From Oceanispirochaeta sp. (GTDB lineage Bacteria > Spirochaetota > Spirochaetia > DSM-2461), in contig CAXXQW010000006.1 in NCBI GenBank assembly GCA_963677615.2, forward strand, positions 33,520 through 97,519: 64,000 nt of DNA, written 5' to 3'. How positions within the stretch are numbered: the first letter of the stretch is position 1; each line of letters opens with the position of its first letter. The notes beneath the pieces are model-generated. The model was not told the DNA's origin. It saw nothing but the letters and a program-made list of their open reading frames with translations, and ran no database searches. A program made the position numbers and the translations under genes. Below are positions 1 through 32,530 of this stretch, one piece after another.

Positions 1-221
1 AGGTTCCTGTCAACAGTCGGTCCTATTCCAGCCGTCAGGATAATATTATGCTCTTCTGCACACCGTCTGATAGTTTCTAGTTGATCATCACTGTATTCCA
101 GTATCTGATGAGCAGCAATTTCCAGGATATCAAATCCAATCTCTGATACTTTTTTTATATAGTGGATATAATCTCCATCCCACTCCTGTTCCCAAAAAGC
201 GTAATATATTCCATGTTTCAT
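1..221 (-). CDS. dpe: D-psicose (D-allulose)/D-tagatose 3-epimerase family protein, 5' part only (runs off left edge; not in ORF track)
   Basis: Manual translation from ATG at 221 (SD GAGGA upstream): MKHGIYYAFWEQEWDGDYIHYIKKVSEIGFDILEIAAHQILEYSDDQLETIRRCAEEHNIILTAGIGPTVDRN. This closely matches the N-termini of characterised ketose 3-epimerases as recalled (MKHGIYY.YWE.EW...GFDI.E.AA...I.LT.G.GP). Confidence 0.88.
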   Translation of the reverse strand, partial: MKHGIYYAFWEQEWDGDYIHYIKKVSEIGFDILEIAAHQILEYSDDQLETIRRCAEEHNIILTAGIGPTVDRN

Positions 222-249
222 TTGATTTCCTCATTAAAGAAAGATTGAA

Positions 250-1950
250 TTATTTATCAATTTTTTCAGTAGTAATAACTGGTAAAATGACACGTGAAGG
301 GTAATCTTTTCCCATATAGAAGTTCTGTTTAGCTTTTTTCTTTGTTATCTGCTCCGACCAAACACCTGGAAGATTAGGATGGATTGAATATTGGGGAAAA
401 TCCGATGATTGTATATCAATTCTCAATTGAGAGCCTTTTTTGAATTGAAAAGCAATATCCCAGAGATCTATATTTACTTCAACAATCTCTCCCGGTTTAT
501 ATCCCACCCTTTTTTTGGAGTTGTTACGATAGCCCAGAGTTGTTATTCCGGACCTGACATTGTAGCTACTCCCATCCTTGAGAATGTTCATTATTTTTAC
601 TGAAAAGGATGTATCTTCAACATCAGTGCTGACATAAAGAAGAACATTTATCTTTCCCCATACCGTTATATCCTGATGCAAGGTACTGCTAATAAAACTG
701 ATGACATCTTCCCTGTAATCGGGTCCCGGCTGAAGAAGACTACCAATAGCCTCTCTTGTCTTTAACATGGATTCTGCCCCCCAACTGGGTACTGGGTCAT
801 CCGGATTATATTGAAAAGAAAATGTATGATTTTTTTCGAGAGATGTTATCATAGGAGTAAGCTCTTTTCGTTCCTTCTCCATATTAAAATACAATTCCAG
901 AATTTCCTGATTCTCTAAATTATAATCAGCCTGATCGATCCAATAATCCCCACCAATGACATAGGAAGAGACTCCTGTATCATGATTATCTTTTTTTACT
1001 TGAAGATCATAAAACCATTTAAAAGACCTGATCAGATCATTATTTTCGTAATTTTTCCCTATATGCCCCTGAATAGGGACATCAAACCAATGATCCCATG
1101 GACCAACAACAAGCTTGCTCTTCTTTCTGCATTCATCCGATAACGCATGGTAGGACAAGAGACCGGAACCCAGGTGATGATCATACCATCCTTCACTAAT
1201 GAGTAAGGGAATTTTCACTTTTTGGGGAATTGTTTTCAGAATCCCCCAAACTCCTTCATTCCAGTATTCATCATCCCCATCGGTAGAAGTAACCCATTTT
1301 TTATACCACTCCAGATGCTTTCCCCATAGGTTACCGCTGACGTCACAGTGAGGCTGATACTTACAGGTTTCAAGATAGTCGGCCTTTACATCATAACCGG
1401 CATTTTCCATAGCCCAAGCTGTTAAAACATCATGGCGGAAAAGTCCGTCTTTATAAGCAGAAATATGACGAAAAACACCATAATTGGACAGATACATAGT
1501 CTTCACTTTTTCCGGGAGAATATCTGCAATTATCCATCCCGTAAGAGCCATATAGGAAACTCCCATATAACCCACATTTTCCACCCAGGCCTGTGAGCAG
1601 ACCCAATCTATAGTATTTTTCCCGTCCCTTCTTTCATTGACATTAGGTTCCCATTCTCCTTCAGATCCTCCTGTTCCACGGCAGAACTGTGTTATAAATG
1701 CAAAACCTCTATGTGCATATTCCACAGCAATGGCCTTATACCAATCCTCCAGATCTTTATAGGGTGTTCTTACCAGAATTGCAGGATAACTTTCATCATC
1801 GCTAACAGGTCGGGAGATAAAAGTTCTGAGATTGACTCCATCACCCATGGTGAGCCTAATTTCTGAGGATTCTATGCTGTTGTGTGTTTCCGGGTATTCG
1901 CTGGATGAAAATTTATTGTGAATATCCTGTATTTTATCACTATCGCCCAT
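250..1950 (-). CDS. CocE/NonD family serine hydrolase (S15/X-Pro dipeptidyl-peptidase-like), copy 1
   Basis: RTPY, CRGTGGSEG, nucleophile GVSY, GWYDHH (Asp), GPWDH (His), C-terminal PepX_C-like jelly-roll (RIDIQSSDFP). No signal peptide. Confidence 0.9.
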   Translation of the reverse strand: MGDSDKIQDIHNKFSSSEYPETHNSIESSEIRLTMGDGVNLRTFISRPVSDDESYPAILVRTPYKDLEDWYKAIAVEYAHRGFAFITQFCRGTGGSEGEWEPNVNERRDGKNTIDWVCSQAWVENVGYMGVSYMALTGWIIADILPEKVKTMYLSNYGVFRHISAYKDGLFRHDVLTAWAMENAGYDVKADYLETCKYQPHCDVSGNLWGKHLEWYKKWVTSTDGDDEYWNEGVWGILKTIPQKVKIPLLISEGWYDHHLGSGLLSYHALSDECRKKSKLVVGPWDHWFDVPIQGHIGKNYENNDLIRSFKWFYDLQVKKDNHDTGVSSYVIGGDYWIDQADYNLENQEILELYFNMEKERKELTPMITSLEKNHTFSFQYNPDDPVPSWGAESMLKTREAIGSLLQPGPDYREDVISFISSTLHQDITVWGKINVLLYVSTDVEDTSFSVKIMNILKDGSSYNVRSGITTLGYRNNSKKRVGYKPGEIVEVNIDLWDIAFQFKKGSQLRIDIQSSDFPQYSIHPNLPGVWSEQITKKKAKQNFYMGKDYPSRVILPVITTEKIDK

Positions 1951-1997
1951 ATTTCTGAATTCTCCCTATAACTGTAGAAGCTTCAAATATTTAGCCT

Positions 1998-2669
1998 TCA
2001 AAAAATTTCAACCTGCCGGCAATCTTCGGCAATAACAATATTGGCTTTGGTATTTTCCAGAATAAAATCTTCTGTATAGGGTTTAAAGATTTCTTTGAGT
2101 ACAAATGCCCCATCGGATATTTCAAAATAACCGACATCTGTAACAAGCACATCAACCTCATTCTGAGCTGTCAGAGGCAAACGGCACTCCTTCAGCAGCT
2201 TGCAATTCCCATGTTTGTCAAAATGGACAGTTGCACCAATCACTTTCCGTGCGCCTACAGTAAGGTCCATCCCGCCCCCCATTCCCGGTACCATTTTTCC
2301 GGGGATTTTATAATTGGCCAGATTTCCCTGCTGATCCACTTCCAGCACTCCAAGAACAGTGTAATCCACATGACCACCGCGGATAATCCCGAAGGAAACA
2401 GCCGAATCAAAGTAACAGCCACCTGGTAAAAGAGTAACTGGCATTCCACCGGCATTAACAAGATAAGGATCTATACCGCTCTCATCAGGCTTAGGCCCCA
2501 GACCGATAAACCCATTTTCCGAATGAAAAATTATATCTATCCCTTCGGGGATGTAGTTACCAACTTCAGTGGGTAGTCCTATTCCCAGATTAACCACGTT
2601 ACCATTAGCAAAAATCTGAGCTATACGTTTTGCAATAATATCTTTCCGGGGAGTATATTCAATCATCAC
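1998..2669 (-). CDS. atoA: 3-oxoacid/acyl CoA-transferase subunit B (class I)
   Basis: VNLGIGLPT, catalytic SENG, GMGGGMDL motifs. Confidence 0.9.
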   Translation of the reverse strand: MMIEYTPRKDIIAKRIAQIFANGNVVNLGIGLPTEVGNYIPEGIDIIFHSENGFIGLGPKPDESGIDPYLVNAGGMPVTLLPGGCYFDSAVSFGIIRGGHVDYTVLGVLEVDQQGNLANYKIPGKMVPGMGGGMDLTVGARKVIGATVHFDKHGNCKLLKECRLPLTAQNEVDVLVTDVGYFEISDGAFVLKEIFKPYTEDFILENTKANIVIAEDCRQVEIF

Positions 2670-3355
2670 ACAACCTGCCTGTTCCTGGTTTCTACCAGAT
2701 AGTTAACAAAAATTGAGGGAGTCACTACTGAATCCGGATCCAGTTCTCCTATTTCAACAATTTCATCTGCCTGCACTATGACGGTATCACAAGCCATAGC
2801 CATAAGGGGATTGAAATTTCTTGCAGATCGAGCATAGACAAGATTTCCCGCCCGATCTGCTTTTTCAGCATGAATCAGTGCCACATGCCCGGGAAGGGCC
2901 AACTCAAGCAGATATTTTTTTCCGTCTGTCTCAATGATCTGCTTACCTTCCTCAACTTCGGTACCAACTCCTGTAGGAGTCAAAAAACCTCCGATTCCAT
3001 AACCTGCAGACCTGATTCGCTCGGCCAGTGTTCCCTGAGGGACAAGTTCGACTTCTGTTTCACCGGCAATCATTTGCCTTTGAATCTCTATATTCAAACC
3101 GATATGACTTGCAATTACTTTTACGAACTGGTGAGCCAATATATTTTCAGAGACACCATTTACTTTTCCCTTATCGGGAAGATACCATCCACAATCAGTA
3201 CTGATTAAAGTAAGATTATTGGTTCCCTGCTCTTTTAGAGCCTTAAGCAGTTCAGGAGGTGCACCACACCCCATAAAACCTCCGACCATTACAGTCTGAC
3301 CCGACTGAACGACTGTCAGAGCATCCTTACTAGACAGGATTTCTTTCTTAACCAT
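2666..3355 (-). CDS. atoD: CoA-transferase subunit A (class I)
   Basis: VGGF.GCG.P, PQGTLAERIR.GG.GIGGFLTPTGVGT, GNLVY...ARNFNP. Start trimmed to MVKKEIL (3355); overlaps subunit B by 4 nt. Confidence 0.9.
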   Translation of the reverse strand: MVKKEILSSKDALTVVQSGQTVMVGGFMGCGAPPELLKALKEQGTNNLTLISTDCGWYLPDKGKVNGVSENILAHQFVKVIASHIGLNIEIQRQMIAGETEVELVPQGTLAERIRSAGYGIGGFLTPTGVGTEVEEGKQIIETDGKKYLLELALPGHVALIHAEKADRAGNLVYARSARNFNPLMAMACDTVIVQADEIVEIGELDPDSVVTPSIFVNYLVETRNRQVV

Positions 3356-3368
3356 GAACAATTCTCCA

Positions 3369-4547
3369 TTACAATTCGATGCACATTGCGGCACCCATTC
3401 CTCCGCCGATACAGAGTGTAGCCAGCCCTTTTTTCAAACCTCTCCGTTTCATTTCATAAATCAATGTAACAAGGATTCGTGTCCCGCTTGCTCCGATCGG
3501 ATGACCGATTGCAATTGCTCCCCCATTGACATTAATTACCGATGTATCCCATCCCAGTTCTTTATTTACAGCAATAGCCTGAGCGGCAAAAGCTTCGTTT
3601 GATTCAATCAATTCCAGGTCTCCAATCGACCACCCGGCTTTTTTAAGGGCTTCCCTGGTTGCTCCTACAGGACCAATCCCCATGATTTCGGGAGGACAAC
3701 CAGCGTATCCATAGGATGCTATTCGCGCCAGAGGCTCGGAATTTCTCAAACGTAATTCATCTTGTGAAACCAGTAATGCAACTGCCGCAGAATCATTTAT
3801 TCCCGAAGAGTTGCCGGCAGTGACAGTTCCATCCTTCTTGAAAGCAGGACGCAGCCTGGAAAGGGATTCAACAGTAACCCCATGACGGATATACTCATCA
3901 TTCTGGAAGATGATGGGATCACCCTTATGCTGGGGAATAGAAACAGGGATAATTTCATCTTTGAATTTTCCGGTTTTTTGAGCTTCTTCCGCCTTATTCT
4001 GAGAACAGCAGGCAAACTGATCCTGTTCTTCTCGGCTTATACCGTATTTCTCAGCAAGATTCTCAGCAGTAATACCCATATGATAGTCGTTGAATTTGTC
4101 CCAGAGACCATCATAAATCATACTGTCTATAATCTCCCCATTTCCCATGCGGTATCCACTACGGGCTTTTGGCAGGATATAGGGAGCCATTGACATATTC
4201 TCTACTCCACCTGCTAGAACCATATTTGCATCACCGCATTTGATACTTTGAGCTGCAAGCATCAAGGCACGTAATCCTGAACCACAGACCATATCTATCG
4301 AAAGAGCGGTCTTCTCTTTTGGAATCCCCGCATTTACCGCTGCCTGTCGGGCAACATTCTGTCCCAATCCGGAACCCAGAACATTTCCCAGAATCAATTC
4401 ATCAATTCTTTCCGGTTCAATTGCATTTCGGGAAACCAGATCGGAAATAACAACTTCAGCCAAATCAGAAGGATGAATAGAAGAAAGGGTTCCTCCAAAG
4501 TTTCCTACAGCAGTCCTGGCACAATCCAATACATAAACATCCTTCAT
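3369..4547 (-). CDS. atoB: acetyl-CoA C-acetyltransferase (thiolase II)
   Basis: DMVCGSGL (active Cys), NEAFAAQ, GHPIGASG, CIGGGMG. Start trimmed to MKDVYV (4547, SD AGGAG). Confidence 0.95.
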   Translation of the reverse strand: MKDVYVLDCARTAVGNFGGTLSSIHPSDLAEVVISDLVSRNAIEPERIDELILGNVLGSGLGQNVARQAAVNAGIPKEKTALSIDMVCGSGLRALMLAAQSIKCGDANMVLAGGVENMSMAPYILPKARSGYRMGNGEIIDSMIYDGLWDKFNDYHMGITAENLAEKYGISREEQDQFACCSQNKAEEAQKTGKFKDEIIPVSIPQHKGDPIIFQNDEYIRHGVTVESLSRLRPAFKKDGTVTAGNSSGINDSAAVALLVSQDELRLRNSEPLARIASYGYAGCPPEIMGIGPVGATREALKKAGWSIGDLELIESNEAFAAQAIAVNKELGWDTSVINVNGGAIAIGHPIGASGTRILVTLIYEMKRRGLKKGLATLCIGGGMGAAMCIEL

Positions 4548-4569
4548 TACAAGATCTCCTTCACAAGTA

Positions 4570-5523
4570 TTATTCAAACAACGTACAAGATACGAAATGC
4601 CCTTCTTCTACTTCAATCATGGGGATATCACGATCCTTGCATTTATCGCTTACTTTCGGACAGCGGGCAGCAAACCGGCATCCCGGCTTTGGTTCGATAG
4701 GACTTGTGAGTTCTCCGCGCATAATATTTTTTGACAATTTCTTTCCCGTCAGACGAGGAGCCGGGATTGCATCGAGTAGACCGATAGTATACGGATGGAG
4801 TGGATTGCTGAAGAGCTTTTTCTTCTCGGTAAACTCTACACATTGCCCGAGATACATAACAGCAATATGGTGGCTTATATGCTTCACCACACTAAGATCA
4901 TGGGTTATGAACATGTAAGCTATTCCCTTTTCTTCCTGTAAGTCCATCAAAAGGTTTAAAATTTGTGCCTGTATTGATACATCAAGCGCAGAAACAGGCT
5001 CATCACAAACGACAAACTCAGGATTCAGGGCAAGAGCCCGGGCAATTCCGATTCTCTGCCGCCGACCGCCATCCAGCTCATGGGGATAACTGTGCAAGTA
5101 GCGATGAGCTATTCCGACAGTTTTCATCAATTGGTTCACCTTGTCGTTATATTCATCGCGGCTCTCATAGTTTTTGTAGATTTTCAAAGGCTCTCCGATC
5201 AACTCACCAACAGAATTTCTCGGATCCAGTGATGAAAAAGGATCCTGGAATATTAGTTGCATTTTAGGTCGAAGTTCATGCATCTCTTTTTTGTTGAAAT
5301 TCAGAATATTCCTGTTCTGAAAAAGAACTTCCCCATCAGTTACATCCAAAAGACGAAGTATGAGATTTCCCAGCGTGGTTTTTCCGCAACCCGATTCTCC
5401 CACGACACCAAGAGTCTTCCCCTTGGCAATATTAAAACTAACATTGTCTACGGCGTGGAGCATTCCTCTATGAGTTTTAAAGTATTTCTTAAGATTCTTG
5501 ACCTCTACCAAAGTATCATTCAT
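4570..5523 (-). CDS. oppF: oligopeptide/dipeptide ABC transporter ATP-binding protein (OppF/AppF-like)
   Basis: GESGCGKTT, FQDP, variant signature LDGGRRQRI, CDEPVSALD, C-terminal oligo_HPY domain (HPYT...CRFAARC). Confidence 0.92.
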   Translation of the reverse strand: MNDTLVEVKNLKKYFKTHRGMLHAVDNVSFNIAKGKTLGVVGESGCGKTTLGNLILRLLDVTDGEVLFQNRNILNFNKKEMHELRPKMQLIFQDPFSSLDPRNSVGELIGEPLKIYKNYESRDEYNDKVNQLMKTVGIAHRYLHSYPHELDGGRRQRIGIARALALNPEFVVCDEPVSALDVSIQAQILNLLMDLQEEKGIAYMFITHDLSVVKHISHHIAVMYLGQCVEFTEKKKLFSNPLHPYTIGLLDAIPAPRLTGKKLSKNIMRGELTSPIEPKPGCRFAARCPKVSDKCKDRDIPMIEVEEGHFVSCTLFE

Positions 5524-6512
5524 TGTGCTTCTCCATTGCCGATGTTTTTAAACAAGTGACATCTGATAAAGTGCCCCGGCTCAACTTCCTGCATAACCTG
5601 CGTTTGCCTGCAAACATCACTAACTTTCTTACACCTATCTGCAAACCGGCACCCTTTTATTTCCTCTGTTGGATCCGGCATCAAGCCTTCTATGGTATCC
5701 AGCCTATCAGTGTCTTCATCAAGTTTGGGTATGGCACCAAACAGTCCTTCCGTGTAGGGATGTCTGAATTCTCCTTCAAATATCGATTCAATCCTCCCGC
5801 TTTCAATAATCTCTCCGGAATACATTACAGCCACTTTCTCACAGGTTTGGGCAACAACTCCCAGATCATGTGTAATTAAAACCATAGCTGTGTTCAGTCT
5901 GACTTTGAGATCATTGATAAGAGAAAGCATCTGAGCCTGAATAGTTACATCCAGAGCAGTCGTCGGTTCATCCGCAAGAATCAATTTTGGCTCACATGCC
6001 AGGGCTATGGCAATAATGATTCTCTGCTTCATCCCTCCGGAAAACTGATGGGGAAACTCATTCTTCCGGTAGGCAGGAATACCAACCAGTTCCATCATCT
6101 CGTCAACAACTTTATTGAGCTCTTCTTTTGACAATTCCCTACGGTGAATAGCCAACACTTCAAGAATCTGGTTTCCAACAGACATAACTGGATTCAAACT
6201 GGTCATGGGATCCTGAAAAATCATGGAAACAACATCACCCTGCATCTTACGGATCTGCTCTGATGGGCAGTTAAGAACATCAATCCCATCAAGAGATAGG
6301 CTTCCGCCGGTGACATAACCAATATCCTGTGGCAACAGACGCATTATACTTAATGCTGTTGTTGTTTTCCCGGCACCAGTTTCGCCCACTAATCCAAGTG
6401 CTTCTCCATATCCCAGTGAAAGGCTCAAACCATTCACAGCGTATACATTGCCGTCCTCAACTCTGTATTCGACATGCAAATCTTTTATTTCAAGTAAGTT
6501 ATTAGTACTCAA
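5520..6512 (-). CDS. oppD: oligopeptide/dipeptide ABC transporter ATP-binding protein (OppD/DppD-like)
   Basis: GETGAGKTT, FSGGMKQR, ADEPTTALD, HPYT...CRFADRC. Confidence 0.92.
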   Translation of the reverse strand: MSTNNLLEIKDLHVEYRVEDGNVYAVNGLSLSLGYGEALGLVGETGAGKTTTALSIMRLLPQDIGYVTGGSLSLDGIDVLNCPSEQIRKMQGDVVSMIFQDPMTSLNPVMSVGNQILEVLAIHRRELSKEELNKVVDEMMELVGIPAYRKNEFPHQFSGGMKQRIIIAIALACEPKLILADEPTTALDVTIQAQMLSLINDLKVRLNTAMVLITHDLGVVAQTCEKVAVMYSGEIIESGRIESIFEGEFRHPYTEGLFGAIPKLDEDTDRLDTIEGLMPDPTEEIKGCRFADRCKKVSDVCRQTQVMQEVEPGHFIRCHLFKNIGNGEAQ

Positions 6513-7420
6513 CGTTTTTTCCTTTCAAACAGGCTGATTCTCTTTACAGTACCAAGAGAGCCGCGTAGTCGCGGATCCAATGCATCCCTTACCGCATCTC
6601 CAACGATATTGAAACACAAAACGATCAAAAAGATAAAAATACCCGGGGCTACGGCCAGTACCGGAATCATTCTCAGGAATGTATTCCCATCAGCGACCAT
6701 CCCCCCCCAAGAGGGAAGAGGTGGATTGATTCCCAATCCCAGAAAGCTCAGGTTTGCTTCCGCTAAAATTGCCGTTCCCAGATTCATGGTCATCAATACA
6801 ATATTAGGGGAAATACAGTTTGGTAGAATGTGCTTGAGGGTTGTACGGAACTTCGAGGAGCCACATATGGTGCTAGCTGTAATATAATCACTTCCCCGGA
6901 CTGTAAGGACCTGTCCTCTAGTTAGCCGGGCAAAACTTGGTGCCGCGCTTATTCCAACCGAAAGCATGACATTCGGAAGTCCCTTCCCAAGAATTCCTCC
7001 CAGAAATATAGCCAGAACAATCAAAGGAATGGACATCATGGCATCCATCAACCTCATTATGATTGTATCGACGATTCCACCTACAACACCTGCAGTAACT
7101 CCAAGAATCATGCCTATAGTACCTGCAATTAACACAGAAGCTAGACCGACGGAAAAAGAGATTCTCGTTCCATAGATGATTCGGGAAAATGTATCCCTAC
7201 CCAACGAATCAGTTCCGAAAATATGTTCCAGAGAACTAGTCTTCAAAGTATTATTCAGATCCTGTTTATAAGGATCATAGGGAGCAACAAAAGGGGCAAA
7301 AACAGCGGCAAATGCCAAAGCAAGTAGTATTATGAGGCATATAACAACCGCCTTTCTTGCCAATAGAACCCTGAAAAATCTTTTCATCTTCTGCGAAGCG
7401 GCCTTTTCATTATTTTTCAT
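6509..7420 (-). CDS. oppC: peptide ABC transporter permease (OppC/DppC-like)
   Basis: HIFGTDSLGRD, EAA-type loop, KHILPN, FLGLG, GDAVRDALDP. Confidence 0.92.
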   Translation of the reverse strand: MKNNEKAASQKMKRFFRVLLARKAVVICLIILLALAFAAVFAPFVAPYDPYKQDLNNTLKTSSLEHIFGTDSLGRDTFSRIIYGTRISFSVGLASVLIAGTIGMILGVTAGVVGGIVDTIIMRLMDAMMSIPLIVLAIFLGGILGKGLPNVMLSVGISAAPSFARLTRGQVLTVRGSDYITASTICGSSKFRTTLKHILPNCISPNIVLMTMNLGTAILAEANLSFLGLGINPPLPSWGGMVADGNTFLRMIPVLAVAPGIFIFLIVLCFNIVGDAVRDALDPRLRGSLGTVKRISLFERKKR

Positions 7421-7471
7421 GGCGATACTCTCTCCCTATTCTCTCATTTTGAACTATACACATCATATATC

Positions 7472-8434
7472 TCACTTTCTGTCTCTTATACGCGGATCAA
7501 CAACACCATAAAGTAGATCTACTATTAAATTGCAAATTATTATGAATACTGAAATAACAAAAACAACATTCTGAACAACCATAAAATCTTTACTTCTAAT
7601 CGCTGTTATCATTGTAGAGCCAAGACCGGGTATAACAAAAAGTGACTCAATAATAATGGTCGTTCCCACCATAATTCCCAGCTGAAATCCCATAACAGTA
7701 ATAATGGGAATCAGTGCATTCCTCAGCTGGTGTTTAAGAATTATATTTTTTCTGTCTAGCCCCTTTGCTCTGGCGGTTCTAACATAATCCTGACGAATAA
7801 CTTCCAGCATTGCAGACCTGGTCTGTCGGGTAAAAACAGCCGTAGGGGTTAAGGAACAGATAATCACCGGCATAATAAGCGGTTTTATCGACTTACCAAA
7901 ATCAACCCATGGAGGGACATATCCCTGTACAGGCAGCATGCGTAACTTAATGGAAAAGATAAGAATCAAAAGAATACCAAGCCAGAATATCGGCATGGCC
8001 ATTCCAAAATTAGCCAGGGTTGATACTACAGAATCAAGAGGCTTCCCCCTATGCAGAGCGGCTATGATTCCAAAAGTGGAACCTATAATTACGGCAAGAA
8101 AAAAAGCCGGTAAAACCACTGAAAGAGTAATCGCCAGTTTTTCAAATATAAACTGGGATATATCTTTCTGCATTAATACAGAGCGGCCCATCTGACCATG
8201 AAATAGGTTGCTTATCCATTTACCATATTGAACAAGTATAGGCTGATCATACCCAAATAGTTTCGTATAGTGGTCAATTTGTTCCATCGTTGCAGAAGGC
8301 CCCAGAAAGATACGAATGGGATCTCCTGGAACAGCCTGCATTACCATGAACACAATAAAAGTTACGACGACTAATACTATGAGTGAATGAGCAACCCTTG
8401 ATAAAATCATTTGTAATAATTTGTTCTTCATCAT
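7472..8434 (-). CDS. oppB: peptide ABC transporter permease (OppB/DppB-like)
   Basis: PGDP, QDYVRTARAKGL, RNALIP, DLLYGVVDPRI. Start trimmed to MMKNKLL. Confidence 0.92.
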   Translation of the reverse strand: MMKNKLLQMILSRVAHSLIVLVVVTFIVFMVMQAVPGDPIRIFLGPSATMEQIDHYTKLFGYDQPILVQYGKWISNLFHGQMGRSVLMQKDISQFIFEKLAITLSVVLPAFFLAVIIGSTFGIIAALHRGKPLDSVVSTLANFGMAMPIFWLGILLILIFSIKLRMLPVQGYVPPWVDFGKSIKPLIMPVIICSLTPTAVFTRQTRSAMLEVIRQDYVRTARAKGLDRKNIILKHQLRNALIPIITVMGFQLGIMVGTTIIIESLFVIPGLGSTMITAIRSKDFMVVQNVVFVISVFIIICNLIVDLLYGVVDPRIRDRK

Positions 8435-8570
8435 ATATCTCCAATTTCTCATCGGCAATGAACTAGTAAACCGTCACTAGCCGGATCTGATAAAAACAAA
8501 CTCCGGTTTCATTCACATTTACGATCACTTGAATTTCCATTCTCCGAGTAGTAAGTAAAAAATGAATACT

Positions 8571-8596
8571 GGGGACCAGATTTTTATCTGATCCCC
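8571..8596 (-). terminator. stem-loop between oppA and oppB (mRNA-stabilising hairpin or partial terminator)
   Basis: Inverted repeat ggggaccagat / atctgatcccc with 1 mismatch, just after the oppA stop. Confidence 0.5.
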
Positions 8597-8613
8597 GATT
8601 TCTCTATATATTG

Positions 8614-10176
8614 TTATTCGATCCAGGCGTTTGCAGGATCCCAGGTATAAACATGGTCCCAGTTGATTCTTGTATCATGGAGCGTTTTCACTTTGAATAC
8701 AAAAGGCTTTTGAATATAAAGAGGCTGACCAAACAACGCATATTTATCATAGGCCATAACCTGCATCTTCCACTCAAGTGCTACTTTTTCTTCATCCGTA
8801 GGGGCAACTCGTATCTGATGCAGAAGGTCCAGCATTTCCTGAGGATGCTGAAAACCTCCAGCATAGAAGGGAGCATCCGGATCTAGGTGTCTACCCATGA
8901 ACAAACCGAGGTCGGGAGAGATGGAGTGATAGTGACCCATTATTCCTTCCCAGGTACTGGAAAACATATTAAAGATTGTGGGGTCGTCCACCAGGTTTAC
9001 AGTAGTCCGGATACCTGCTTCAGTCAGCATGTTTGCAGCTGCGGTAAACATATCCTTAGTTTGGGGAGGTGTATTGATAACTGTATCAAAACCATTGGGA
9101 TATCCAGCTTCAGCAAGTAATTTTTTAGCTTTTTCAGGATTATAAGGATACCCTTTAACATTGGGATTATATGTTTTTGCACCTTTGGCTGCCCACTGAT
9201 TTGTAGAATCAAGAAGACCGTATCCGAAAGTTCTTACCAGAGCTTCTGCATCTATTGCATAACACATGGCCTGTCGAACCTTAACATCTGCAAAAGGTGA
9301 GTCTGGATCGGCACTATTAGGAATAAGCCCTGTTCCTACAAGACCGCGACCGGATTTATTCTCTTCCATGTCGTAGATGCCTGCATTCATCAGCTGCTGA
9401 CCAGCAATTATATCCTCTATCAGAATGGCATCATATTCCCCATTTTGAAACGCCAGGGCGATGGTCTGGTTTTCCTGAATAATGTCAAAATTGATCGCAT
9501 CCAGATAGGGCTTGCCTTCCTGCCAGTAATTTTCGTTCTTAACATAACGTACTTTTACGTTGTTTACAAATTCAGAGACAATGAAAGGACCTGTTCCCGC
9601 AGAAGACGACCGTAGTTTATCTACATCTTCAAGAGCTTTGGGTGAAGCGTAGAATACATAGAATCCCATACCTTCAAGAGTCGATGAATTCCAGTCTTTA
9701 AGTATCAGTTTTACCGTATAATCATCAATGATATTGATACTGGCAATATTTTGGGTCTCGTTTCTTCCTACACTCTGGTACTCCTCAATGTTCCTTTTAA
9801 CTGCTGCGGCGTTGAAGGGTTCACCATCGGAGAATTCTACTCCCTGACGAAGTGTCCATGTGATACTAGGTTCTGACGGGTCAGTAGTCCAGGCAGTCGC
9901 CAGACTCGGAATAACATTCCCCTTTTCATCATATTTGATAAGTGATTCATATGCTGAATAAACATAGAGCAAAGGTCCATTTGAGGTAACTTCCGGCATA
10001 TAACCGGAATTAGGCAGCTGATTGAACAAACCAAAACGTAATACGCCTCCGTATTTACCGTCTTTCTTGACAGTTGTTTGTTCTGTTTCCTGGCCGCCAT
10101 TAGCTAATACTGGACTGATAAATACAGCCATGATCGCCAAGGCAATGATAGTTCTAAATAGTTTTCTTGAACTCAT
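8614..10176 (-). CDS. oppA: family 5 ABC substrate-binding protein (OppA/DppA-like)
   Basis: Signal peptide ending LA-NGGQE, YESLIKYD...PSLAT.W...LRQGVEFSDG.PFNA.AVK, AGTGPF, KVRQAM.YAID, YNPEKAKKLLAEAGYP. Confidence 0.9.
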   Translation of the reverse strand: MSSRKLFRTIIALAIMAVFISPVLANGGQETEQTTVKKDGKYGGVLRFGLFNQLPNSGYMPEVTSNGPLLYVYSAYESLIKYDEKGNVIPSLATAWTTDPSEPSITWTLRQGVEFSDGEPFNAAAVKRNIEEYQSVGRNETQNIASINIIDDYTVKLILKDWNSSTLEGMGFYVFYASPKALEDVDKLRSSSAGTGPFIVSEFVNNVKVRYVKNENYWQEGKPYLDAINFDIIQENQTIALAFQNGEYDAILIEDIIAGQQLMNAGIYDMEENKSGRGLVGTGLIPNSADPDSPFADVKVRQAMCYAIDAEALVRTFGYGLLDSTNQWAAKGAKTYNPNVKGYPYNPEKAKKLLAEAGYPNGFDTVINTPPQTKDMFTAAANMLTEAGIRTTVNLVDDPTIFNMFSSTWEGIMGHYHSISPDLGLFMGRHLDPDAPFYAGGFQHPQEMLDLLHQIRVAPTDEEKVALEWKMQVMAYDKYALFGQPLYIQKPFVFKVKTLHDTRINWDHVYTWDPANAWIE

Positions 10177-10245
10177 AATTTTCTCCTTCTTGTTTATGTT
10201 CTACAAATGCCTGAACGGGCCCTGAACCGGCATTATGTAAATCGC

Positions 10246-12054
10246 TTAAATTAATGCGGGAAGCAAGATACAACTAGGATAATCCCCTCCGTACATAAGG
10301 GTATTAAAGGTTATGCAATCTTCTTCCTGTAAAGACCATATTTCATCATGATTCCTGTGAATATTGTACATGGGAAAATTCGAGGAGCTGATATCAACTC
10401 GGATTGTACTTCCAGCAGAGACTTTCCAGGCAACCGGCCACATCTCTATTTTTAATTGAGTGACATCATGAGGGGTGTACTCTCTTGCCATTCCATTTCC
10501 AGCTCTAAATCTGATAGTTGAAATGCCATCGCATATGTTAAAATACTGTCCTTGAATCTCTTCCATTATCTTTACGGCAATACATGTATCGGGTGCATCA
10601 GAACTGACATTAAGTAGCACCTTGATATTCCCGACAAGATCAATATCCTCTTCAAAAGGCTTCGATATAAATGTTACAACGTCATCTCTGAACTCCGGCT
10701 CCGGCTGCAGCACACATCCATGTTTCGCTCCTTTGAAATCAGGATTTATCCATGCTAAAAGAGCGCTTCCTCCAATAGTATGAACCGGGTTGGAAGAGTC
10801 ATACACAAATTCCCTGGTATATGTATTCTCAGGAGCTACCTCTCTTAAAATGCCAATTCTATTATTTACCAGATTCTCTGAATCTAAATAAAGACACTTT
10901 TGTTCAGCATCAACCGGCCACTTATCATGGGCTATCCATTTTCCGCTGTTTACCAGATAGGTTTCCACATTTCCGACTTCATGAGGATAGTTTTCACCCT
11001 TCAACTGAAAATCAAACCATTCAATAGCTTCCCTGACACAGAATGTACTCAAAGCAATTTTCCCTGCAAAACCCTTATCTCCAGGAGTTTTGAATGAATG
11101 ATCCCAGGGACCGATAAGAAAGCGGCTTTTATTCCTGATGGATTGGGGAAGATTGTTATATGCCTCACACATTCCATCAAGATGATGGTCAAACCAGCCG
11201 GCAATCATGTGAACTGGAATACTTATTTTCGAAGGGACTTTCTGGAGATCATACCAAAGACCGGAACTCCACAAATCCGAATCGACTGATGGATTGGTTA
11301 CCCAGTCCCGGTACCAGGATATTTCAGTATTGAACAGATTATAATCCATCTCTATATGGGGTTTAACTTTTAATGCTTCCTGGTAAAGATCTCCCGGATT
11401 CTTTTCTGTTGTAATCCCTGAATTTTCAACAGCCCACATGGTATAGATTTCATGACGGAACATACCACCCATATACATTTGGCGATACCGCTCTGTTCCC
11501 GCAACAGTAAAAAACAGGGTTTTTACTTCCACTGGTACAGCATCAGCCATCAACCACTGATTGATTGAAAGATAGGATGGACCGAACATTGCAATTCTAT
11601 TCTGGCTCCAGGGCTGTGCCTTTATCCATTCGATAGCAAGAAGTCCATCGTTACGCTCATTGACAAAGGGAATCCACTCTCCTTTTGAAGATCCAGTACC
11701 CCGACAATCCTGTACAACGACAACATACCCGTACATAGCCATTAATGAAGCAGCACAGAACAATTGTATTCCCGTTGACAAAGCAGAATAGGGAGATCGA
11801 ATAAGAATAACCGGGTATTCCTTTTCGAAGTTGGGCGAAATAACCTCGGTAAAAAGGGTTACATCTTCATCCACGTCTACCATAAAGGATCGTGAAACAA
11901 CACTTCGGTTTGTAACTTCCTGGTTTTCAAATATCATGTCATTTATTACAGAGCGGTTAGTTTCATCAATATTATCAGGAATGAGTTCGGTATAATTGAT
12001 TATTCTCTCCGCATCGTATTCACAATCCATACTGATTTTCACCTTTCTTTTCAA
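10246..12054 (-). CDS. CocE/NonD family serine hydrolase, copy 2
   Basis: RSPY, CRGTGSSKG, GPSY, GWFDHH, GPWDH, RVDISSSNFP. No signal peptide. Confidence 0.9.
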   Translation of the reverse strand: MKRKVKISMDCEYDAERIINYTELIPDNIDETNRSVINDMIFENQEVTNRSVVSRSFMVDVDEDVTLFTEVISPNFEKEYPVILIRSPYSALSTGIQLFCAASLMAMYGYVVVVQDCRGTGSSKGEWIPFVNERNDGLLAIEWIKAQPWSQNRIAMFGPSYLSINQWLMADAVPVEVKTLFFTVAGTERYRQMYMGGMFRHEIYTMWAVENSGITTEKNPGDLYQEALKVKPHIEMDYNLFNTEISWYRDWVTNPSVDSDLWSSGLWYDLQKVPSKISIPVHMIAGWFDHHLDGMCEAYNNLPQSIRNKSRFLIGPWDHSFKTPGDKGFAGKIALSTFCVREAIEWFDFQLKGENYPHEVGNVETYLVNSGKWIAHDKWPVDAEQKCLYLDSENLVNNRIGILREVAPENTYTREFVYDSSNPVHTIGGSALLAWINPDFKGAKHGCVLQPEPEFRDDVVTFISKPFEEDIDLVGNIKVLLNVSSDAPDTCIAVKIMEEIQGQYFNICDGISTIRFRAGNGMAREYTPHDVTQLKIEMWPVAWKVSAGSTIRVDISSSNFPMYNIHRNHDEIWSLQEEDCITFNTLMYGGDYPSCILLPALI

Positions 12055-12368
12055 TCAGTTTCAATTTCCATATCAAGAATTGCTGAACTTAAGGTTTTCC
12101 CATGCATATCAATCGATAAAGAACGAGTAACTCCCCCTCCCAGAGCATTGTCCATCACAAAGTTCAAAGCGCCAAGCTGAGGTAGTTCATATCGGACAAC
12201 CTCACCAAAAACTATTCCGGAAAACCAATCCCTCACCCTTTCCGCTGTAACATATTTTTCCAGGATTCCGTAATCTTTCATATCATATGCAATGACTGAA
12301 ATATTAGAGATATTACCTTTGTCTCCTGCTCTCGTATGAGCAACTTCGCGTAACTTTACCATATTCAT
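12051..12368 (-). CDS. small AtuA C-terminal-domain-like protein
   Basis: VAHTRAGDKGN.SNISVIA...V.RYELP.LGALNFV...LGGG...SL.ID.HGK.LS. Overlaps both neighbours by 4 nt. Confidence 0.8.
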   Translation of the reverse strand: MNMVKLREVAHTRAGDKGNISNISVIAYDMKDYGILEKYVTAERVRDWFSGIVFGEVVRYELPQLGALNFVMDNALGGGVTRSLSIDMHGKTLSSAILDMEIETD

Positions 12369-13735
12369 GTTCTCTCAAAATGTACTTTAATCTCTGCGTC
12401 AGATTCAGGAATAAAAATCGAGACAACAGAGATTTGTTCTTTGGTTGACGAGCGAAAACCACCGCCTGCGGCAGGTCCATTGAGATATAAAGTTTCTACT
12501 TCTCTGGCAACTGCTTCGGCAGAATCCTTTTCAGCTGTATTGGCTATTATTCGAACACGGATTTCAGAAAACCGCTTTTCAGCGCCCAGCAACTTATCAC
12601 TTAATTCATCACCATATAGAGAATTAAGACCTATATAATCAAATTTAAGTCCTTCAATTGGAAGTTTCAGACGTTTAAAACGTTTTTCTAGTATTTCTAC
12701 TGCAAGCCTGGCCCGATCAAGAGCACCGGGCCCGCCGTAACTGAATTCGCTCTCACTAACATAGCAGTCCCGGTATCCGATACTGACTTTCAACTTTCCT
12801 GTTGAAGGATGGCCAGATCCATTGGAGACTTTTACCCGGTTTTTACCAACCTCTTCAACGACCACCTGTGAAAAATCAGCTATTCCATCTGGGGTAATAT
12901 ATGCATGTGGATCATGGAGTTCATAGAGGATCTGTTCTGTACATGTGGCACGGTTTACAACCCCGCCTGCTTCATCAAGCTTACTAATCTCAATGGTCCC
13001 ATCGGGAGAGATTTCCCCAATCGGAAATCCAACATTCCATAAATCTGGAACATCTTTGTACCCAGGATCCGCGAAATACCCCCCTGTGACCTGTGCTCCG
13101 CATTCAAGGAGGTGCCCTGCAAGGATTCCCTTCCCAATCAATTCAAAATCATCAGTCTGCCAGCCGAACTCATGAATAATTGGAGCAAGTACCAATGCAG
13201 GATCTGAAACCCTTCCGCAGATAACAATATCAGCTCCGCTGTTGAGTGCTTTTACAATTCCTGAAGATCCAATGTAAGCATTTGCAGAAACAATTTCTTT
13301 ATTAAGTTCCCGCAGGGTTCCCCCTGTCTCCAGAACCTCGTTATCCAAATATTTATCAATTTTATCAGAAATGGAATCACCTGTAACATAGGCTATTTTC
13401 ATTCCATTAAATCCCAACTTCCTTGCCAGTTCAGATACTACATGAGCAGCGGATTTTGGATTAGCAGCACCCATATTGGTAATAACTTTAATTCCTGAAA
13501 TATGGCAAAGGGGGAGAACCTGCTCCATTCGGGCTACCAGCAGTTCATTATACCCCTTTTCAGGATCCTTCAATTTATCCTTCTGTGCCAGGGCTATTGT
13601 TCTTTCTGCCAGACATTCAAAGATAATGTAGTCAAGATTTCCTTTTTCCATAAGCTGAATAGCAGGATCTATCCGGTCACCGCCATATCCAGCTCCGGTA
13701 CCAATCCTCAGGCTTGAAGACTTTTTTTCTATCAT
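12365..13735 (-). CDS. acyclic terpene utilisation AtuA family protein (DUF1446)
   Basis: RIGTGAGYGGDR, ECLAERT, NAYIG, GRVSDPAL, GHLLECGAQVTGG, EQILYELHDP..YITPD, LNGPAAGGG. Confidence 0.9.
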   Translation of the reverse strand: MIEKKSSSLRIGTGAGYGGDRIDPAIQLMEKGNLDYIIFECLAERTIALAQKDKLKDPEKGYNELLVARMEQVLPLCHISGIKVITNMGAANPKSAAHVVSELARKLGFNGMKIAYVTGDSISDKIDKYLDNEVLETGGTLRELNKEIVSANAYIGSSGIVKALNSGADIVICGRVSDPALVLAPIIHEFGWQTDDFELIGKGILAGHLLECGAQVTGGYFADPGYKDVPDLWNVGFPIGEISPDGTIEISKLDEAGGVVNRATCTEQILYELHDPHAYITPDGIADFSQVVVEEVGKNRVKVSNGSGHPSTGKLKVSIGYRDCYVSESEFSYGGPGALDRARLAVEILEKRFKRLKLPIEGLKFDYIGLNSLYGDELSDKLLGAEKRFSEIRVRIIANTAEKDSAEAVAREVETLYLNGPAAGGGFRSSTKEQISVVSIFIPESDAEIKVHFERT

Positions 13736-13745
13736 ACCAAAACTT

Positions 13746-13762
13746 ATGCAATGTTCGTGCCA
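13746..13762 (-). promoter_or_regulatory. sigma54 (-24/-12) promoter of the atuA...dpe operon
   Basis: Minus strand reads TGGCAC-GAACA-TTGCAT, matching consensus TGGCAC-N5-TTGC(A/T). An adjacent gene encodes a GAFTGA activator. Confidence 0.9.
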
Positions 13763-13888
13763 GCTATCAAATTTATATGTTTTTTTTCATTAGATGTAAA
13801 ATTACCCTTTTAAAAAAGAGATCAAACATCCAGTTTTTTTAGTAATCGAGAAAATACGGTACGTTCAGGAATAAGATATTTTACAAAT

Positions 13889-13937
13889 TTCTAATTTTCT
13901 GGAAAAATCAAGCTTCTAAATTTCTAAAATTTTAGAA
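13889..13937. promoter_or_regulatory. candidate upstream activator sequences (bEBP binding sites)
   Basis: Perfect palindrome TTCTAAAATTTTAGAA (13922-13937) and imperfect copy TTCTAATTTTCTGGAA (13889-13904), 33 bp apart and about 130-175 bp upstream of the -24 element. Confidence 0.6.
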
Positions 13938-14078
13938 TTTCATTATTGTAAGTCACCATCATAGGAAACAACAGGTATTCTCATTTTAAAATTTTGAATA
14001 CAATTATAGCTCCTGGTATAATTATGTACCAATTTCTGAGAATTGATCTAAAGTCTTTATTAAGAGTTCTGAAAAAGA

Positions 14079-15428
14079 TTAAGGATTTGCTTTTTTTAGT
14101 TTATTGTAGAGTGATGCCAAAGAAATCCCCAGGGCTTTTGCAACTTCTTTCTTTCCTTCAACAGAATTTCCATATTTTTCAAGGGCTTGTGCAATCAACT
14201 TATGTTCTGCCTGATCTACTATCTTTGAAAGTGGCTGCAAACCTGTATCATGTTTTTCCTGAATAATATCTTTAATAGATTTGGGAAGATGGTTTAATTC
14301 TATTATTTCATCTTCACACATCATATAGCTGTATTCAATAGCATTCTTCAATTCTCTGATATTTCCAGGCCAAACATATTTCCTGAATATGTTCAGCACT
14401 TCTTCAGATATAACCTTGTCTGTTTTTTCAACACAATTCAATTCAGAAAGAAAATAATTCACGAGATGTTCGATATCTCCGGTACGCTCTCTGAGGGGAT
14501 TCAGATTAATTCCGAATACACAAAGACGGTAGTATAGATCTGCTCTGAATTCTTTTTTTGATATAAGCTCTGGAATATCCTTATTAGTTGCAGCAATGAC
14601 ACGAACATCAATTGGAATTTCCCTGGCACCACCGACAGGACGAATAGCCTTTTCCTGAAGGGCCCTGAGAAGTTTAGCCTGGATTTTGCAATCCATCTCA
14701 GTGACTTCATCCAAAAAAACGGTTCCCCCATTAGCTTCTTTAAATAAGCCCGTTTTACCGCCTTTTTTAGCGCCCGTAAATGCCCCATCCTGATATCCAA
14801 ACAACTCACTTTCCAATAAAGAGTTATCCAGGGTGGCACAGTTTACCGGAATAAAAGGACTATCCCTTCTGCTGCTTTCATTATGTATGGAATGGGCATA
14901 AAGCTCTTTACCAGTTCCACTTTCTCCGAAAATGAGAACATTTATATCTTTGTGGGCAATTTTCTTTGCAAGATTAATATTATCAAGGGATTTTTGATCT
15001 GTATAAATGATATCATCAAAAGTATACCTGGCACCTTTCAATTTTCTGACCTTGGCTTCAAGGTCTTTTATTATCATTCCGGATCTTTTAAGTTTTTTTG
15101 TAAGCTTCCCTATATCACTGATATCATTTAATAATGAAATACCACCTGTTATCTTCTCATTCTCAATTATAGGTACCATATTCACAATATACTCACGATC
15201 TCCAACTTTACGATGGACACCTAATAGTTGCTCACCTGTTTGCAGAACAGTCTGTAGTTTACTTCCGGGTCTTACTGACAGAGGTTTTCCAACAATATCA
15301 TCAAATGCAACAGAAGTGATTTTAGAATAGGATTTATTCACATAACGAACAATCGAATTGGAATCTACAATGAGGATTCCATCGTATAATGAGTCAAGAA
15401 TAACTTTTACTAAACTAGTAATTTCCAT
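14079..15428 (-). CDS. sigma54-dependent enhancer-binding activator (PAS-AAA+-Fis HTH)
   Basis: N-terminal PAS (ILDSLYDGILIVD), GESGTGKE, GAFTGA, FLDEV, FRADLYYRL, WPGNIREL, C-terminal ALGISLASLYNKL. Confidence 0.95.
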   Translation of the reverse strand: MEITSLVKVILDSLYDGILIVDSNSIVRYVNKSYSKITSVAFDDIVGKPLSVRPGSKLQTVLQTGEQLLGVHRKVGDREYIVNMVPIIENEKITGGISLLNDISDIGKLTKKLKRSGMIIKDLEAKVRKLKGARYTFDDIIYTDQKSLDNINLAKKIAHKDINVLIFGESGTGKELYAHSIHNESSRRDSPFIPVNCATLDNSLLESELFGYQDGAFTGAKKGGKTGLFKEANGGTVFLDEVTEMDCKIQAKLLRALQEKAIRPVGGAREIPIDVRVIAATNKDIPELISKKEFRADLYYRLCVFGINLNPLRERTGDIEHLVNYFLSELNCVEKTDKVISEEVLNIFRKYVWPGNIRELKNAIEYSYMMCEDEIIELNHLPKSIKDIIQEKHDTGLQPLSKIVDQAEHKLIAQALEKYGNSVEGKKEVAKALGISLASLYNKLKKANP

Positions 15429-15865: not shown

Positions 15866-18325
15866 TCAAACTCCCTCCCTGAGGCGTCTCATCCAGTCAC
15901 CGTTTGTCTGAACGGTTTCCACCTTATGCCCTGCCAGCGGCATAATCTGCTCATGAATGGCATCTACAATCCACGAAACCTGGGGAAAGTAGATCTCTTC
16001 CATTTCTGCAGGAGGGGAAATCCAGTTTCTGGAGCCCACGACCACAGGAGGAGCATCCAGATAGTCAAAGGCCAAACGGGTCAGATTGGAGGCGATATTA
16101 TGGGTAAAGGCACCTTTTTCCACGGCATCTGATACGAGGATGCAGCGGCCTGTTTTTTTCAGGGACTCTACCAGGGGTTCATAATTCAGAGGAGTCAAGA
16201 ACCTCAGGTCGATCACTTCCACAGAAAGACCGTATTTTTCTTCCAGCACTTTAGCTGCATCCATGGCGGGATACAGGGTGGCTCCAATAGACATGATAGT
16301 CAGATCGTTCCCCTCTTTCCGGATAGCAGGTTCCCCTTCAGGAACTTCATAGTACCCTTCGGGAACACCTTCTTTCTCAAAAAGTTCGGCTTCGCCGTAG
16401 ATTTTCTGGCTTTCCAGAAAGATCACCGGATCGGTTCCTCTCAGGGCCAGGTTAAGCATACCTTTGGCATCGTAGGGAGTCGCAGGGAACATAACCTTCA
16501 ATCCGGGGATATGGGAAACAATAGCCGACCAGTCCTGGGAGTGCTGTGCTCCGTATTTGGCACCGACAGAGACTCTCAGCACCAGAGGCATCTTCAGAAC
16601 ACCTGCGGACATGGACTGCCACTTGGGCATCTGGTTGAAGACTTCGTCTCCCGCCCTACCCAGGAAGTCACAGTACATAAGCTCTACAACGGCACGGCCG
16701 CCGGCCATGGCGTATCCCACAGCAGAACCGACAATGGACGCTTCTGATATGGGAGAGTTAAAAAATCTATGGTAGGGCAGCAGCTCTGTCAAACCTCTGT
16801 AACAGGCGAACGCTCCGCCCCAGTCCCTGACATCTTCACCGTAGGCAATCATGGTGGGATCTTCTGCAAAGCGGTGAGCCATGGCTTCAAAAATACCGTC
16901 ACGGAAAGCATAGGTTTTGGAAGCAGGCAGTTTTTTGCCGTTTTCGTCATAGCCGTACCTGGCTTTCCTTTTCAACTGTTTCACACGGGGGTTCTCTTCC
17001 AGAGGCTGAAGGAGTTCGGCTTCCCTGTCTTCCATTTTGGGAACATTACCGCCCGAAAACATAACAGATTCAATGAACTGCCCGTCCACATGGGGGCTGA
17101 TGGCATCATCGATGGCAATTTTCATGGTAGTCGTTATTTTTTCAACAACCGTCTCTTTCATGGCGTCCAGCTCTTTCTGGGTTGCCACTTTGCCGGCTTT
17201 CAGATATTCACCGAACTCCACGATGCAGTCCATATTGGTAAAAGCATCGATCTCTTCTTTTGTTCTGTAGGAAGAAGCATCTGAAGGAGAGTGTCCGGAG
17301 AGCCTGTAGGTAATGGTATCCAGAAGGGCAGGACCCTGACCTTTCAGAAGGATCTCTTTCTTTCTGGCAGTTGCTTCCGCAACAGCCAGGGGATTGAATC
17401 CGTCAACTCTTTCGGCATGCATATTCTCTTCGTTAACACCGGCACCGAGACGGGCGGCAACACCGAATCCCATGGTTTCTCCCACAGGTTGTCCGCCCAT
17501 GGCGTAGAAGTTGTTAAAAACATTCAGCAGGTAAGGGGGCATACCACCCAGATCCTTGTCCCAGAGGGTCTTGTACTGATCCATGGCAGCCATCATCAGT
17601 CCTTCCCACACAGGGCCGCAGGCAAGAGATCCGTCACCGATATTGGCAATGACAATACCGTTTTTCCGGTTCACCCTTTTAAAGAGAGCCGCACCCAGAG
17701 CGATATCACCGGAACCACCGACAATAGCGTTATTGGGCATACTGCCGAAGGGAGCAAAGAAAGTGTGCATGGATCCGCCGAGCCCCCGGCTGAATCCGGC
17801 TCTTCTGGCAAAGATTTCCGCCAGAGCACCGTAGAGAACAAAGTTTTCTGCAGTATCCCGGACAGAGCTGCCATTATGATGATCCTGGACAACTTTCAGA
17901 GTATCACCGTCCATAAAGGATTCCATAACAGAAGTCAGATCTTTTTCTTCCATGGCATGAACAGCTTTGAAACATTTGGCCAGAATCTCACCATGAGAGC
18001 GGTGGGATCCGAAGATAAAATCGTCCGTATCCAGAGCCAGAGCCTGCCCGACATAGGCTGATTCCTGACCAATCGCCAGGTGAGCGGGACCTTTGTGGTT
18101 ATACTCTATTCCCTGGTAATGTCCCTCTTTTTTGATGGAGTTCAGCATGGATTCGAATTCCCGGATAATGAGCATGTCGTAATAAGCCTGCTTCAACCCG
18201 TCTTTTCCATACTTTTTGATCTCTTCCTTGATATCTCCCTTGTACTGGTTTACAGGAATATCTTTCAGTTTGATCACTTTGGATTCTCTGATCTTTTTAG
18301 GATCTACCGTAATCTGCTGTGCCAT
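15866..18325 (-). CDS. fused E1 alpha-beta subunit of a 2-oxoacid/acetoin dehydrogenase complex (ThDP-dependent)
   Basis: HLAIGQE, HRSHG, GGSMH, GDG...NN ThDP motif, YRLSGHS (alpha half); GEDV, SPISE, GAQHSQ, VIDLR.L.PL (beta half). Confidence 0.9.
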
Positions 18326-18485
18326 TTAAATATCTCCTTTGGCCGGTGGGCCGCTTATTTTTTTTGTTGTAACGTATCTGAATTCTTGTCGTTATGGCTT
18401 AAAGATTTGATCCGGAGACAAGGCAGAAAACGCGGAGCGTACGAAGGTACGTGAGCATTTTCAACGCAGAATCCGGATCAAAGAT

Positions 18486-19823: not shown

Positions 19824-19834
19824 AATTTCCTTCC

Positions 19835-28628: not shown

Positions 28629-28630
28629 TA

Positions 28631-29203: not shown

Positions 29204-29336
29204 TTGAACTCCTCTCTCCCCATTCCCTGATTAAACTTTTAATACAGGCTCCCCTCCGGACAACAGCAAGAGGGGGGCCGGAGATAGTCAATCAGGAAAT
29301 GACAGACCTCCTCGGAAGGAGGCAGTATTCACTCAA

Positions 29337-30359: not shown

Positions 30360-30524
30360 AAGAATCCTCCATTTAATATGTACGCCATTCGATAAACTAT
30401 TATCAAAAGGCTGTTAAATGGTATGACGGGTTTTCCGAACCCGCTCTATGGAAGATTTTGAAAATTTAGGGAATTGTATTTTCTTTCTATGCGATTGTAC
30501 TTTAAACCTCAGTGATTGTATTAA

Positions 30525-32438: not shown

Positions 32439-32447
32439 ATGCGCTGT

Positions 32448-32456: not shown

Positions 32457-32530
32457 CGGAAAATTTGATTCTGAGTATGCAGATTTCAGGCTGTTTTTTT
32501 CAGGAATTTTCCCAATGACGGTTTTTTTCA

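Follow-up and report, generated by a model that had tools for sequence, protein, structure and literature searches.

An edge-cut gene start behind a hydrolase gene

The reverse complement of positions 1-221 of the window (the whole stretch of DNA analysed, 64,000 nucleotides) reads as an ATG (221-219) and then 72 more sense codons without a stop (MKHGIYYAFWEQEWDGDYIHYIKKVSEIGFDILEIAAHQILEYSDDQLETIRRCAEEHNIILTAGIGPTVDRN), and the reading frame is still open at position 1, where the gene runs off the edge. On the basis of the translation, a phmmer search of the PDB, and NCBIfam model NF051856, this minus-strand feature (1..221; 73 codons and 2 nt) is almost certainly the start of a gene of the D-psicose/D-allulose 3-epimerase (DPE) family, of which about 216 codons (about 650 bases) would be expected beyond position 1. 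A ribosome-binding site, GAGGA, is located at 232-228 on the same strand, 6 nt ahead of the ATG, and an in-frame TGA 12 nt upstream makes this ATG the first possible start.

The preceding hydrolase ORF (250..1950, minus strand) stops with TAA at 252-250. The intergenic gap (222..249, minus strand) therefore spans 28 nt and holds the GAGGA site; a promoter and terminator scan of the minus strand in and next to this gap showed no terminator-like hairpin and no sigma-70-like promoter. The GC content of the fragment (38.9%) and its GC3 (33%) were both like those of the upstream hydrolase gene. An earlier note on this DNA had described a 73-residue N-terminus cut by the window edge and starting 28 nt beyond the end of a gene it called cocE1; translation gave exactly those 73 residues, and the gap from 249 to 222 measured 28 nt. 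As the note had also stated, the gene is absent from the ORF track because of its truncation: the listing leaves out ORFs that cross an end, and the gene was "hidden" for this reason. With a 28-nt gap and no terminator-like or sigma-70-like site in or next to it, co-transcription with the hydrolase gene is plausible.

The sigma-54 operon upstream of the gene start

The genes upstream of the epimerase-family gene lie on the same minus strand and form a sigma-54 operon of about 14 kb, with the activator gene upstream of it (window 250-15428). The activator (14079..15428) is a PAS-AAA+-HTH sigma-54 enhancer-binding protein (Pfam Sigma54_activat, E 3.7e-66; HTH_8; PAS). A -24/-12 promoter element, TGGCACGAACATTGC (TGGCAC-N5-TTGC; 13748..13762, minus strand), ends 12 nt upstream of the ATG of an AtuA-family gene. 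The element at 13762-13748 was the sole match in the 64 kb; since at least one match also occurred in 23 of 100 shuffled sequences, it is its position beside the AtuA start that makes it persuasive.

The AtuA-family protein (12365..13735) matched PF07287 at E 1e-155, and no relative of it with a solved structure was found. Its stop codon is overlapped by a 105-aa ORF (12051..12368) that was labelled AtuA_ferredoxin-like by position alone; the label derives from the gene at the corresponding place in L030, the metagenome contig described below, which carries PF23544. A CocE/NonD S15 hydrolase of 602 aa follows (10246..12054; Pfam, NCBIfam), the first of two in transcription order and the one with no counterpart in L030. 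Next come the genes of an ABC importer of the peptide/opine/nickel type (4570..10176), comprising a family-5 substrate-binding protein (8614..10176; NCBIfam matches and the Pfam families of the L030 orthologues), two permeases (7472..8458 and 6509..7420), and two ATPases (5520..6512 and 4570..5523), the permeases and ATPases being assigned from the Pfam families of their L030 orthologues. The binding protein gave sub-threshold NCBIfam matches to opine, nickel, and peptide binders.

Behind the importer are an acetyl-CoA C-acetyltransferase (thiolase; 3369..4547; Pfam Thiolase_N/C; TIGR01930, 476 bits) and subunits A (2666..3355) and B (1998..2666) of a 3-oxoacid CoA-transferase (TIGR02428/TIGR02429 above cutoff), for which the exact proteins are present in the protein collection. 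The last gene before the epimerase encodes a second CocE/NonD S15 hydrolase, of 566 aa (250..1950; PF02129 and PF08530; TIGR00976, 269 bits), which matched the Rhodococcus cocaine esterase at E 3.5e-53. The gaps between the operon genes are short or the genes overlap.

A hairpin with an 11-bp stem containing 6 G-C pairs, but without a good T-tract, is found on the minus strand at 8571-8596, in the 155-nt gap after the binding-protein gene. Hairpins that act as stabilisers or attenuators are often found after ABC binding-protein genes, and this one might be an intra-operon element of that sort.

The epimerase-family gene shares the strand of the operon and is separated from it by a short gap with no intervening terminator or promoter; these were among the features by which operon membership was judged. 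Given the 28-nt gap, the gene's own ribosome-binding site, and the missing terminator, read-through from the sigma-54 operon is most likely, and the likeliest reading is that the epimerase would be co-transcribed with the operon from the sigma-54 promoter. No public run indexed as RNA contains the epimerase/operon stretch. A literature search on what DPEs do physiologically and which genes surround them, as well as on AtuA together with a thiolase and a CoA-transferase, returned nothing usable. The operon may be of greater interest than the epimerase itself.

Composition of the segment and flanking genes

GC content is 37-45% in the first 15.8 kb or so of the window and 44-53% in the rest, with a sharp change at about position 15,750. 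In an independent assembly (run X1), the region is found on an 18,109-bp Logan contig, with window position 1 corresponding to record position 1790. The first and last 30 letters of this contig are the same 30-mer (window 16291-16320), located inside the ORF of an E1 dehydrogenase, and the contig has a depth of 6.75, compared with 10.7 for the adjoining contig, which begins with the same 30-mer. The shared 30-mer at both ends indicates either that a direct repeat flanks an 18,079-bp unit or that the assembly graph contains a loop. The segment carrying the operon and the epimerase may be a strain-variable accessory segment.

At 15866-21211 and 27318-38457, the flanks carry genes for a 2-oxoacid dehydrogenase complex, in which the E1 alpha and beta parts are fused into one subunit of 819 aa, for a TRAP transporter, and for a group of hexuronate proteins (a mannitol-dehydrogenase family protein, altronate dehydratase, and glucuronate isomerase). 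None of these genes is a partner for a ketohexose epimerase. The other window edge also cuts a gene (about 63380-64000, plus strand), which encodes a nickel/cobalt transporter of the NicO/RcnA type; the complete protein, P0165 (283 aa), is present in the protein collection, and its best named relatives come from Treponemataceae and Spirochaetales, a hint of a spirochaete origin.

Family assignment of the fragment

When the 73 residues were compared with all PDB chains using phmmer, the best match was 2hk0, the DPE of Agrobacterium tumefaciens (91.9 bits, E 1.5e-25), aligned over residues 1-73 without gaps. The five best distinct PDB sequences were all DPEs, with 87-92 bits (7x7w, 3vni with E 4.4e-24, and 7e9w at about 87 bits). 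They were followed by 8xix/8xiv, named D-tagatose 3-epimerase (72 bits), the Pseudomonas cichorii D-tagatose 3-epimerase (DTE; about 30 bits, E 5e-6), and the ketose 3-epimerase 8yeb (16.5 bits).

A scan of 18,950 NCBIfam models gave a sole match at E<=1e-3, the D-psicose 3-epimerase equivalog NF051856, with 101 bits and E 1e-28 over model positions 1-72 of 287; its cutoff of 300 bits applies to the whole protein, whereas the fragment covers 72 of the 287 positions. The score was calibrated with the first 73 residues of two known DPEs, those of A. tumefaciens (AtDPE; 100.0 bits) and Clostridium cellulolyticum (CcDPE; 103.2 bits), and in this comparison the visible quarter of the protein does as well as genuine DPEs. 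The N-termini of two metagenomic relatives scored 95.3 and 102.3 bits and rose to 443 and 434.5 bits at full length, and full-length relatives with similar N-terminal scores reached 434-474 bits on the same model. The model of the fructoselysine 3-epimerase FrlC, NF007360, gave no match to the fragment at E<=1e-3, and on the full-length relatives it reached 34-58 bits against a cutoff of 305.

Tyr6, Trp14, and Ile66, listed as substrate-binding residues of DPEs (PMC7934257), are all present in the translated fragment, as is Gly65; in alignment A1, Trp14, Gly65, and Gly67 are invariant. The visible part is about 25% of the protein, for which a complete barrel would have about 289 aa, and the positions of the metal ligands Glu150, Asp183, His209, and Glu244 and of Glu156, His186, and Arg215 lie beyond position 1. 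Judged from the sequence, positions 221..1 with near certainty encode a DPE-family N-terminus. The likeness to D-allulose 3-epimerases that the earlier note had pointed out is borne out by both the phmmer and the NF051856 E-values, and the comparison with DPE, DTE, and FrlC that it had proposed separates them clearly: about 92 bits for DPE against about 30 for the P. cichorii DTE, with FrlC unmatched.

A syntenic relative with a decayed epimerase gene

L030, a 15.8-kb JGI metagenome contig, carries the same activator and operon at about 76% nucleotide identity to the window. The shared genes have 75-91% amino-acid identity and all look intact, and the only operon gene missing is the counterpart of the hydrolase at 10246..12054. 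Upstream of the activator, the L030 gene differs from that of the window. Behind the S15 hydrolase of L030, the DPE is present as a decayed remnant in three pieces: the hydrolase gene is fused at its end to residues about 61-96 (WLSVGIGPIIDSN...), residues 163-196 (AEESVAYVQEVDRENAKVMLDTLHMNIEEDSIRE) come next in a different frame, and residues 197-210 (AIRTAGSLLGHYHS) in a third frame, after which the sequence is unrelated. DPE residues 1-60 and 97-162 and the C-terminus are missing, and the frame is broken twice within about 240 nt. The stretches with Asp183/His186 and His209 are kept; the regions of Glu150 and Glu244 are deleted.

The last 29 bases of the window fragment matched L030 at 24 of 29 positions (score 38, compared with 26 for the best of 500 shuffles). 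A match so far above the shuffles indicates that the remnant is orthologous to the window epimerase, from which it follows that the epimerase was in place in the common ancestor and decayed in L030 while the shared operon genes stayed intact. After the remnant, at L030 14405-15800, an 83-aa ORF with a weak sulfatase match is followed by an unannotated ORF that is truncated where the contig stops; from this debris, the region behind the operon in L030 seems to be decaying as a whole.

Gene neighbourhoods of related hydrolases and epimerases

Relatives of the S15 hydrolase with 41-56% identity were surveyed at 29 loci in reference genomes, mostly of Lachnospiraceae. The ABC importer was found immediately upstream of the hydrolase in at least 17 of the 29, with 53-73% identity, and many of the loci have an AtuA homologue nearby. 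This core module, in which the ABC importer precedes an S15 hydrolase and AtuA is often close by, is found repeatedly in Lachnospiraceae as well as in further Clostridia, with identities of 53-73%. At none of the 29 loci was there a homologue of the DPE within 10 kb; with the DPE decayed in L030 as well, conserved co-occurrence of DPE and operon was not observed. The GTDB reference set contained no genome closer than 55% identity, an exact 44-mer was absent from the metagenome contigs scanned, and two of the window proteins are singletons in the protein collection.

The opposite comparison started from the closest full-length DPEs found with the fragment or by alignment (60-70% N-terminal identity). 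Their loci contain CUT2 permeases and an FGGY kinase (L045/L046); the order LacI-DPE-PfkB kinase (L047); LacI, a ribose-type binding protein, an ABC transporter, an FGGY kinase, M24, and DPE (L048/L049); an FGGY kinase, a ribose-type ABC transporter, DPE, and a Zn-dehydrogenase (L032); and MFS, an M24-like ORF, DPE, and LacI (L031). None of the window operon genes was present in those DPE loci that were compared with the operon. The recurring partners of the closest relatives are thus sugar ABC transporters, LacI regulators, and FGGY or PfkB kinases, which fits the channelling of a rare ketohexose into glycolysis.

In three of these loci, an M24-type gene lies directly upstream of the DPE gene (L031 1397-3428; L048/L049 5360-8876). 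It was identified by Pfam Peptidase_M24 in L048/L049, where an FGGY kinase gene precedes it, and by reading of an unscanned ORF in L031.

Interpretation of the epimerase gene

We favour an ordinary DPE-clade gene that is intact, encodes an active enzyme, and sits as a passenger behind the sigma-54 operon, and we give this reading a probability of roughly 60%. By homology, the product would belong to the D-psicose/D-allulose 3-epimerase clade and would be a ketose 3-epimerase with a (beta/alpha)8 barrel that depends on a metal, interconverting D-fructose and D-allulose by deprotonation and reprotonation at C3, with two Glu residues acting on a Mn/Co site. Its gene would be the next one after the visible end of the catabolic operon, reached by read-through. 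Because the linkage is limited to this lineage and the one close relative that was found has a decayed copy, the epimerase is probably not a working part of the operon pathway and would be a lineage-specific passenger at the 3' flank. Its true partners, if there are any, would be genes for sugar uptake or sugar kinases, like those next to its closest full-length relatives, possibly located beyond the window edge.

It is also conceivable that the window gene is itself a pseudogene, with an intact N-terminus and a frameshift, truncation, or deletion beyond the edge. The heavily decayed orthologue in L030 shows that selection on this epimerase copy can lapse, so the window copy might be broken downstream as well, and the segment resembles an accessory region of low GC. 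However, the gene has an undamaged start codon and ribosome-binding site and 73 uninterrupted codons, and the profile score of the fragment equals that of active enzymes, whereas the L030 remnant loses its frame twice over a short distance. In addition, a further 1,789 bases lie past the edge on the X1 Logan contig, a length that could accommodate the complete gene, with room for the missing bases and roughly one more gene. We therefore consider a pseudogene unlikely, while according it a real share of the probability.

A query of the protein database with the 73-aa fragment returned only proteins of 89-121 aa, with no 100% match; a control query with the transporter gene truncated at the opposite edge returned the full-length P0165. 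Absence from the database was considered as a sign of an uncalled gene or a pseudogene and rejected, because full-length proteins with 66-70% N-terminal identity were also missed: short queries miss long targets, and the absence is uninformative on this point.

In a further alternative, the epimerase would be a working member of the operon, acting on the ketose moiety of an imported conjugate, such as a sugar ester or an amino acid or peptide that has been glycated, which would be taken up by the peptide-type ABC system and cleaved by the CocE/NonD hydrolases. The tight spacing on the same strand without a terminator, and the low GC and GC3 shared with the operon, would also fit a functional member; the sub-threshold opine, nickel, and peptide binder matches of the family-5 binding protein are compatible with such a conjugate, and the ancestor shared with L030 already had the DPE at this place. 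These points are outweighed by the fate of the gene in L030, where the operon genes were kept at 75-91% identity and the DPE decayed, and by the surveys, in which neither the 29 other S15 loci nor the DPE loci compared combine both. The nearest relatives are located in free-sugar clusters, and the FrlC model, unmatched by the fragment, scored far below its cutoff on the full-length relatives. We judge working membership in the operon to be quite improbable. The same observations count against the expectation of the earlier note that the operon context may reveal a natural substrate, and the neighbourhood should not serve to infer that of the epimerase.

A more specific proposal, which we regard as very improbable, is that a DPE-clade epimerase was recruited to a sigma-54 pathway that imports a ketose-bearing conjugate through the peptide-type ABC transporter; the CocE/NonD hydrolases would free either the sugar or the acyl moiety, and what is left would be fed to acetoacetyl-CoA. 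If this were true, an industrial enzyme would gain a defined natural substrate distinct from the free rare sugars.

A chance ORF or another enzyme of the AP-endonuclease-2 fold (hydroxypyruvate isomerase, IolO, L-ribulose-5-P 3-epimerase, or FrlC) is effectively refuted by the PDB, NCBIfam, and full-length relative scores: although Pfam PF01261 matched the fragment only weakly and below threshold (19.8 bits), E-values of 1e-25 to 1e-28 were specific to DPEs, no second NCBIfam model matched at E<=1e-3, and non-DPE models reached at most 135 bits on the full-length relatives, compared with 434-474 bits for the DPE model.

Comparison with known ketose 3-epimerases

Ketose 3-epimerases are used industrially to make D-allulose, and each new sequence is a possible catalyst. 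A search of protein representatives with the fragment returned 346 relatives, the best of them 59% identical and none of them the protein itself, and 7,532 database proteins belong to the DPE family at E<=1e-20. Over its visible part, no sequence found exceeds 70% identity to the predicted protein. The gene is an uncharacterised new member of a very large, well-studied family, to which it makes a modest addition.

The nearest sequences found, with 66-70% identity over the 73 residues, form an uncharacterised metagenomic DPE clade (L031 = P0231, P0234, P0236, P0246), whose members have 289-290 aa and score 443-456 bits on NF051856. Their genes are accompanied by CUT2 sugar transporters, an FGGY kinase, an M24-like protein, and LacI, whereas the window copy lies behind an S15 hydrolase gene.

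When the fragment was compared with the A. tumefaciens DPE (2HK0/2HK1), that is, with the first quarter of that protein, 43 of 73 residues were identical in an ungapped alignment. The two sequences have in common MKHGIYY, Trp14, the GFDI(L/I)E strand, AAH..EYSD, and IILTAGIGP, which includes Gly65 and Ile66. The C. cellulolyticum DPE (3VNI) is identical at 41 of 73 positions (E about 4e-24). Clostridium-type DPEs have Ala-Ser-Pro-Leu and Gly-His-Gly, whereas the fragment has the Agrobacterium-type Ala-His-Gln-Ile and Gly-Ile-Gly. The P. cichorii DTE (2QUL) and E. coli FrlC (NF007360) share with the fragment the superfamily of AP_endonuc_2/xylose-isomerase-like TIM barrels; the likeness to the former is far weaker than that to the DPEs, and the latter was unmatched.
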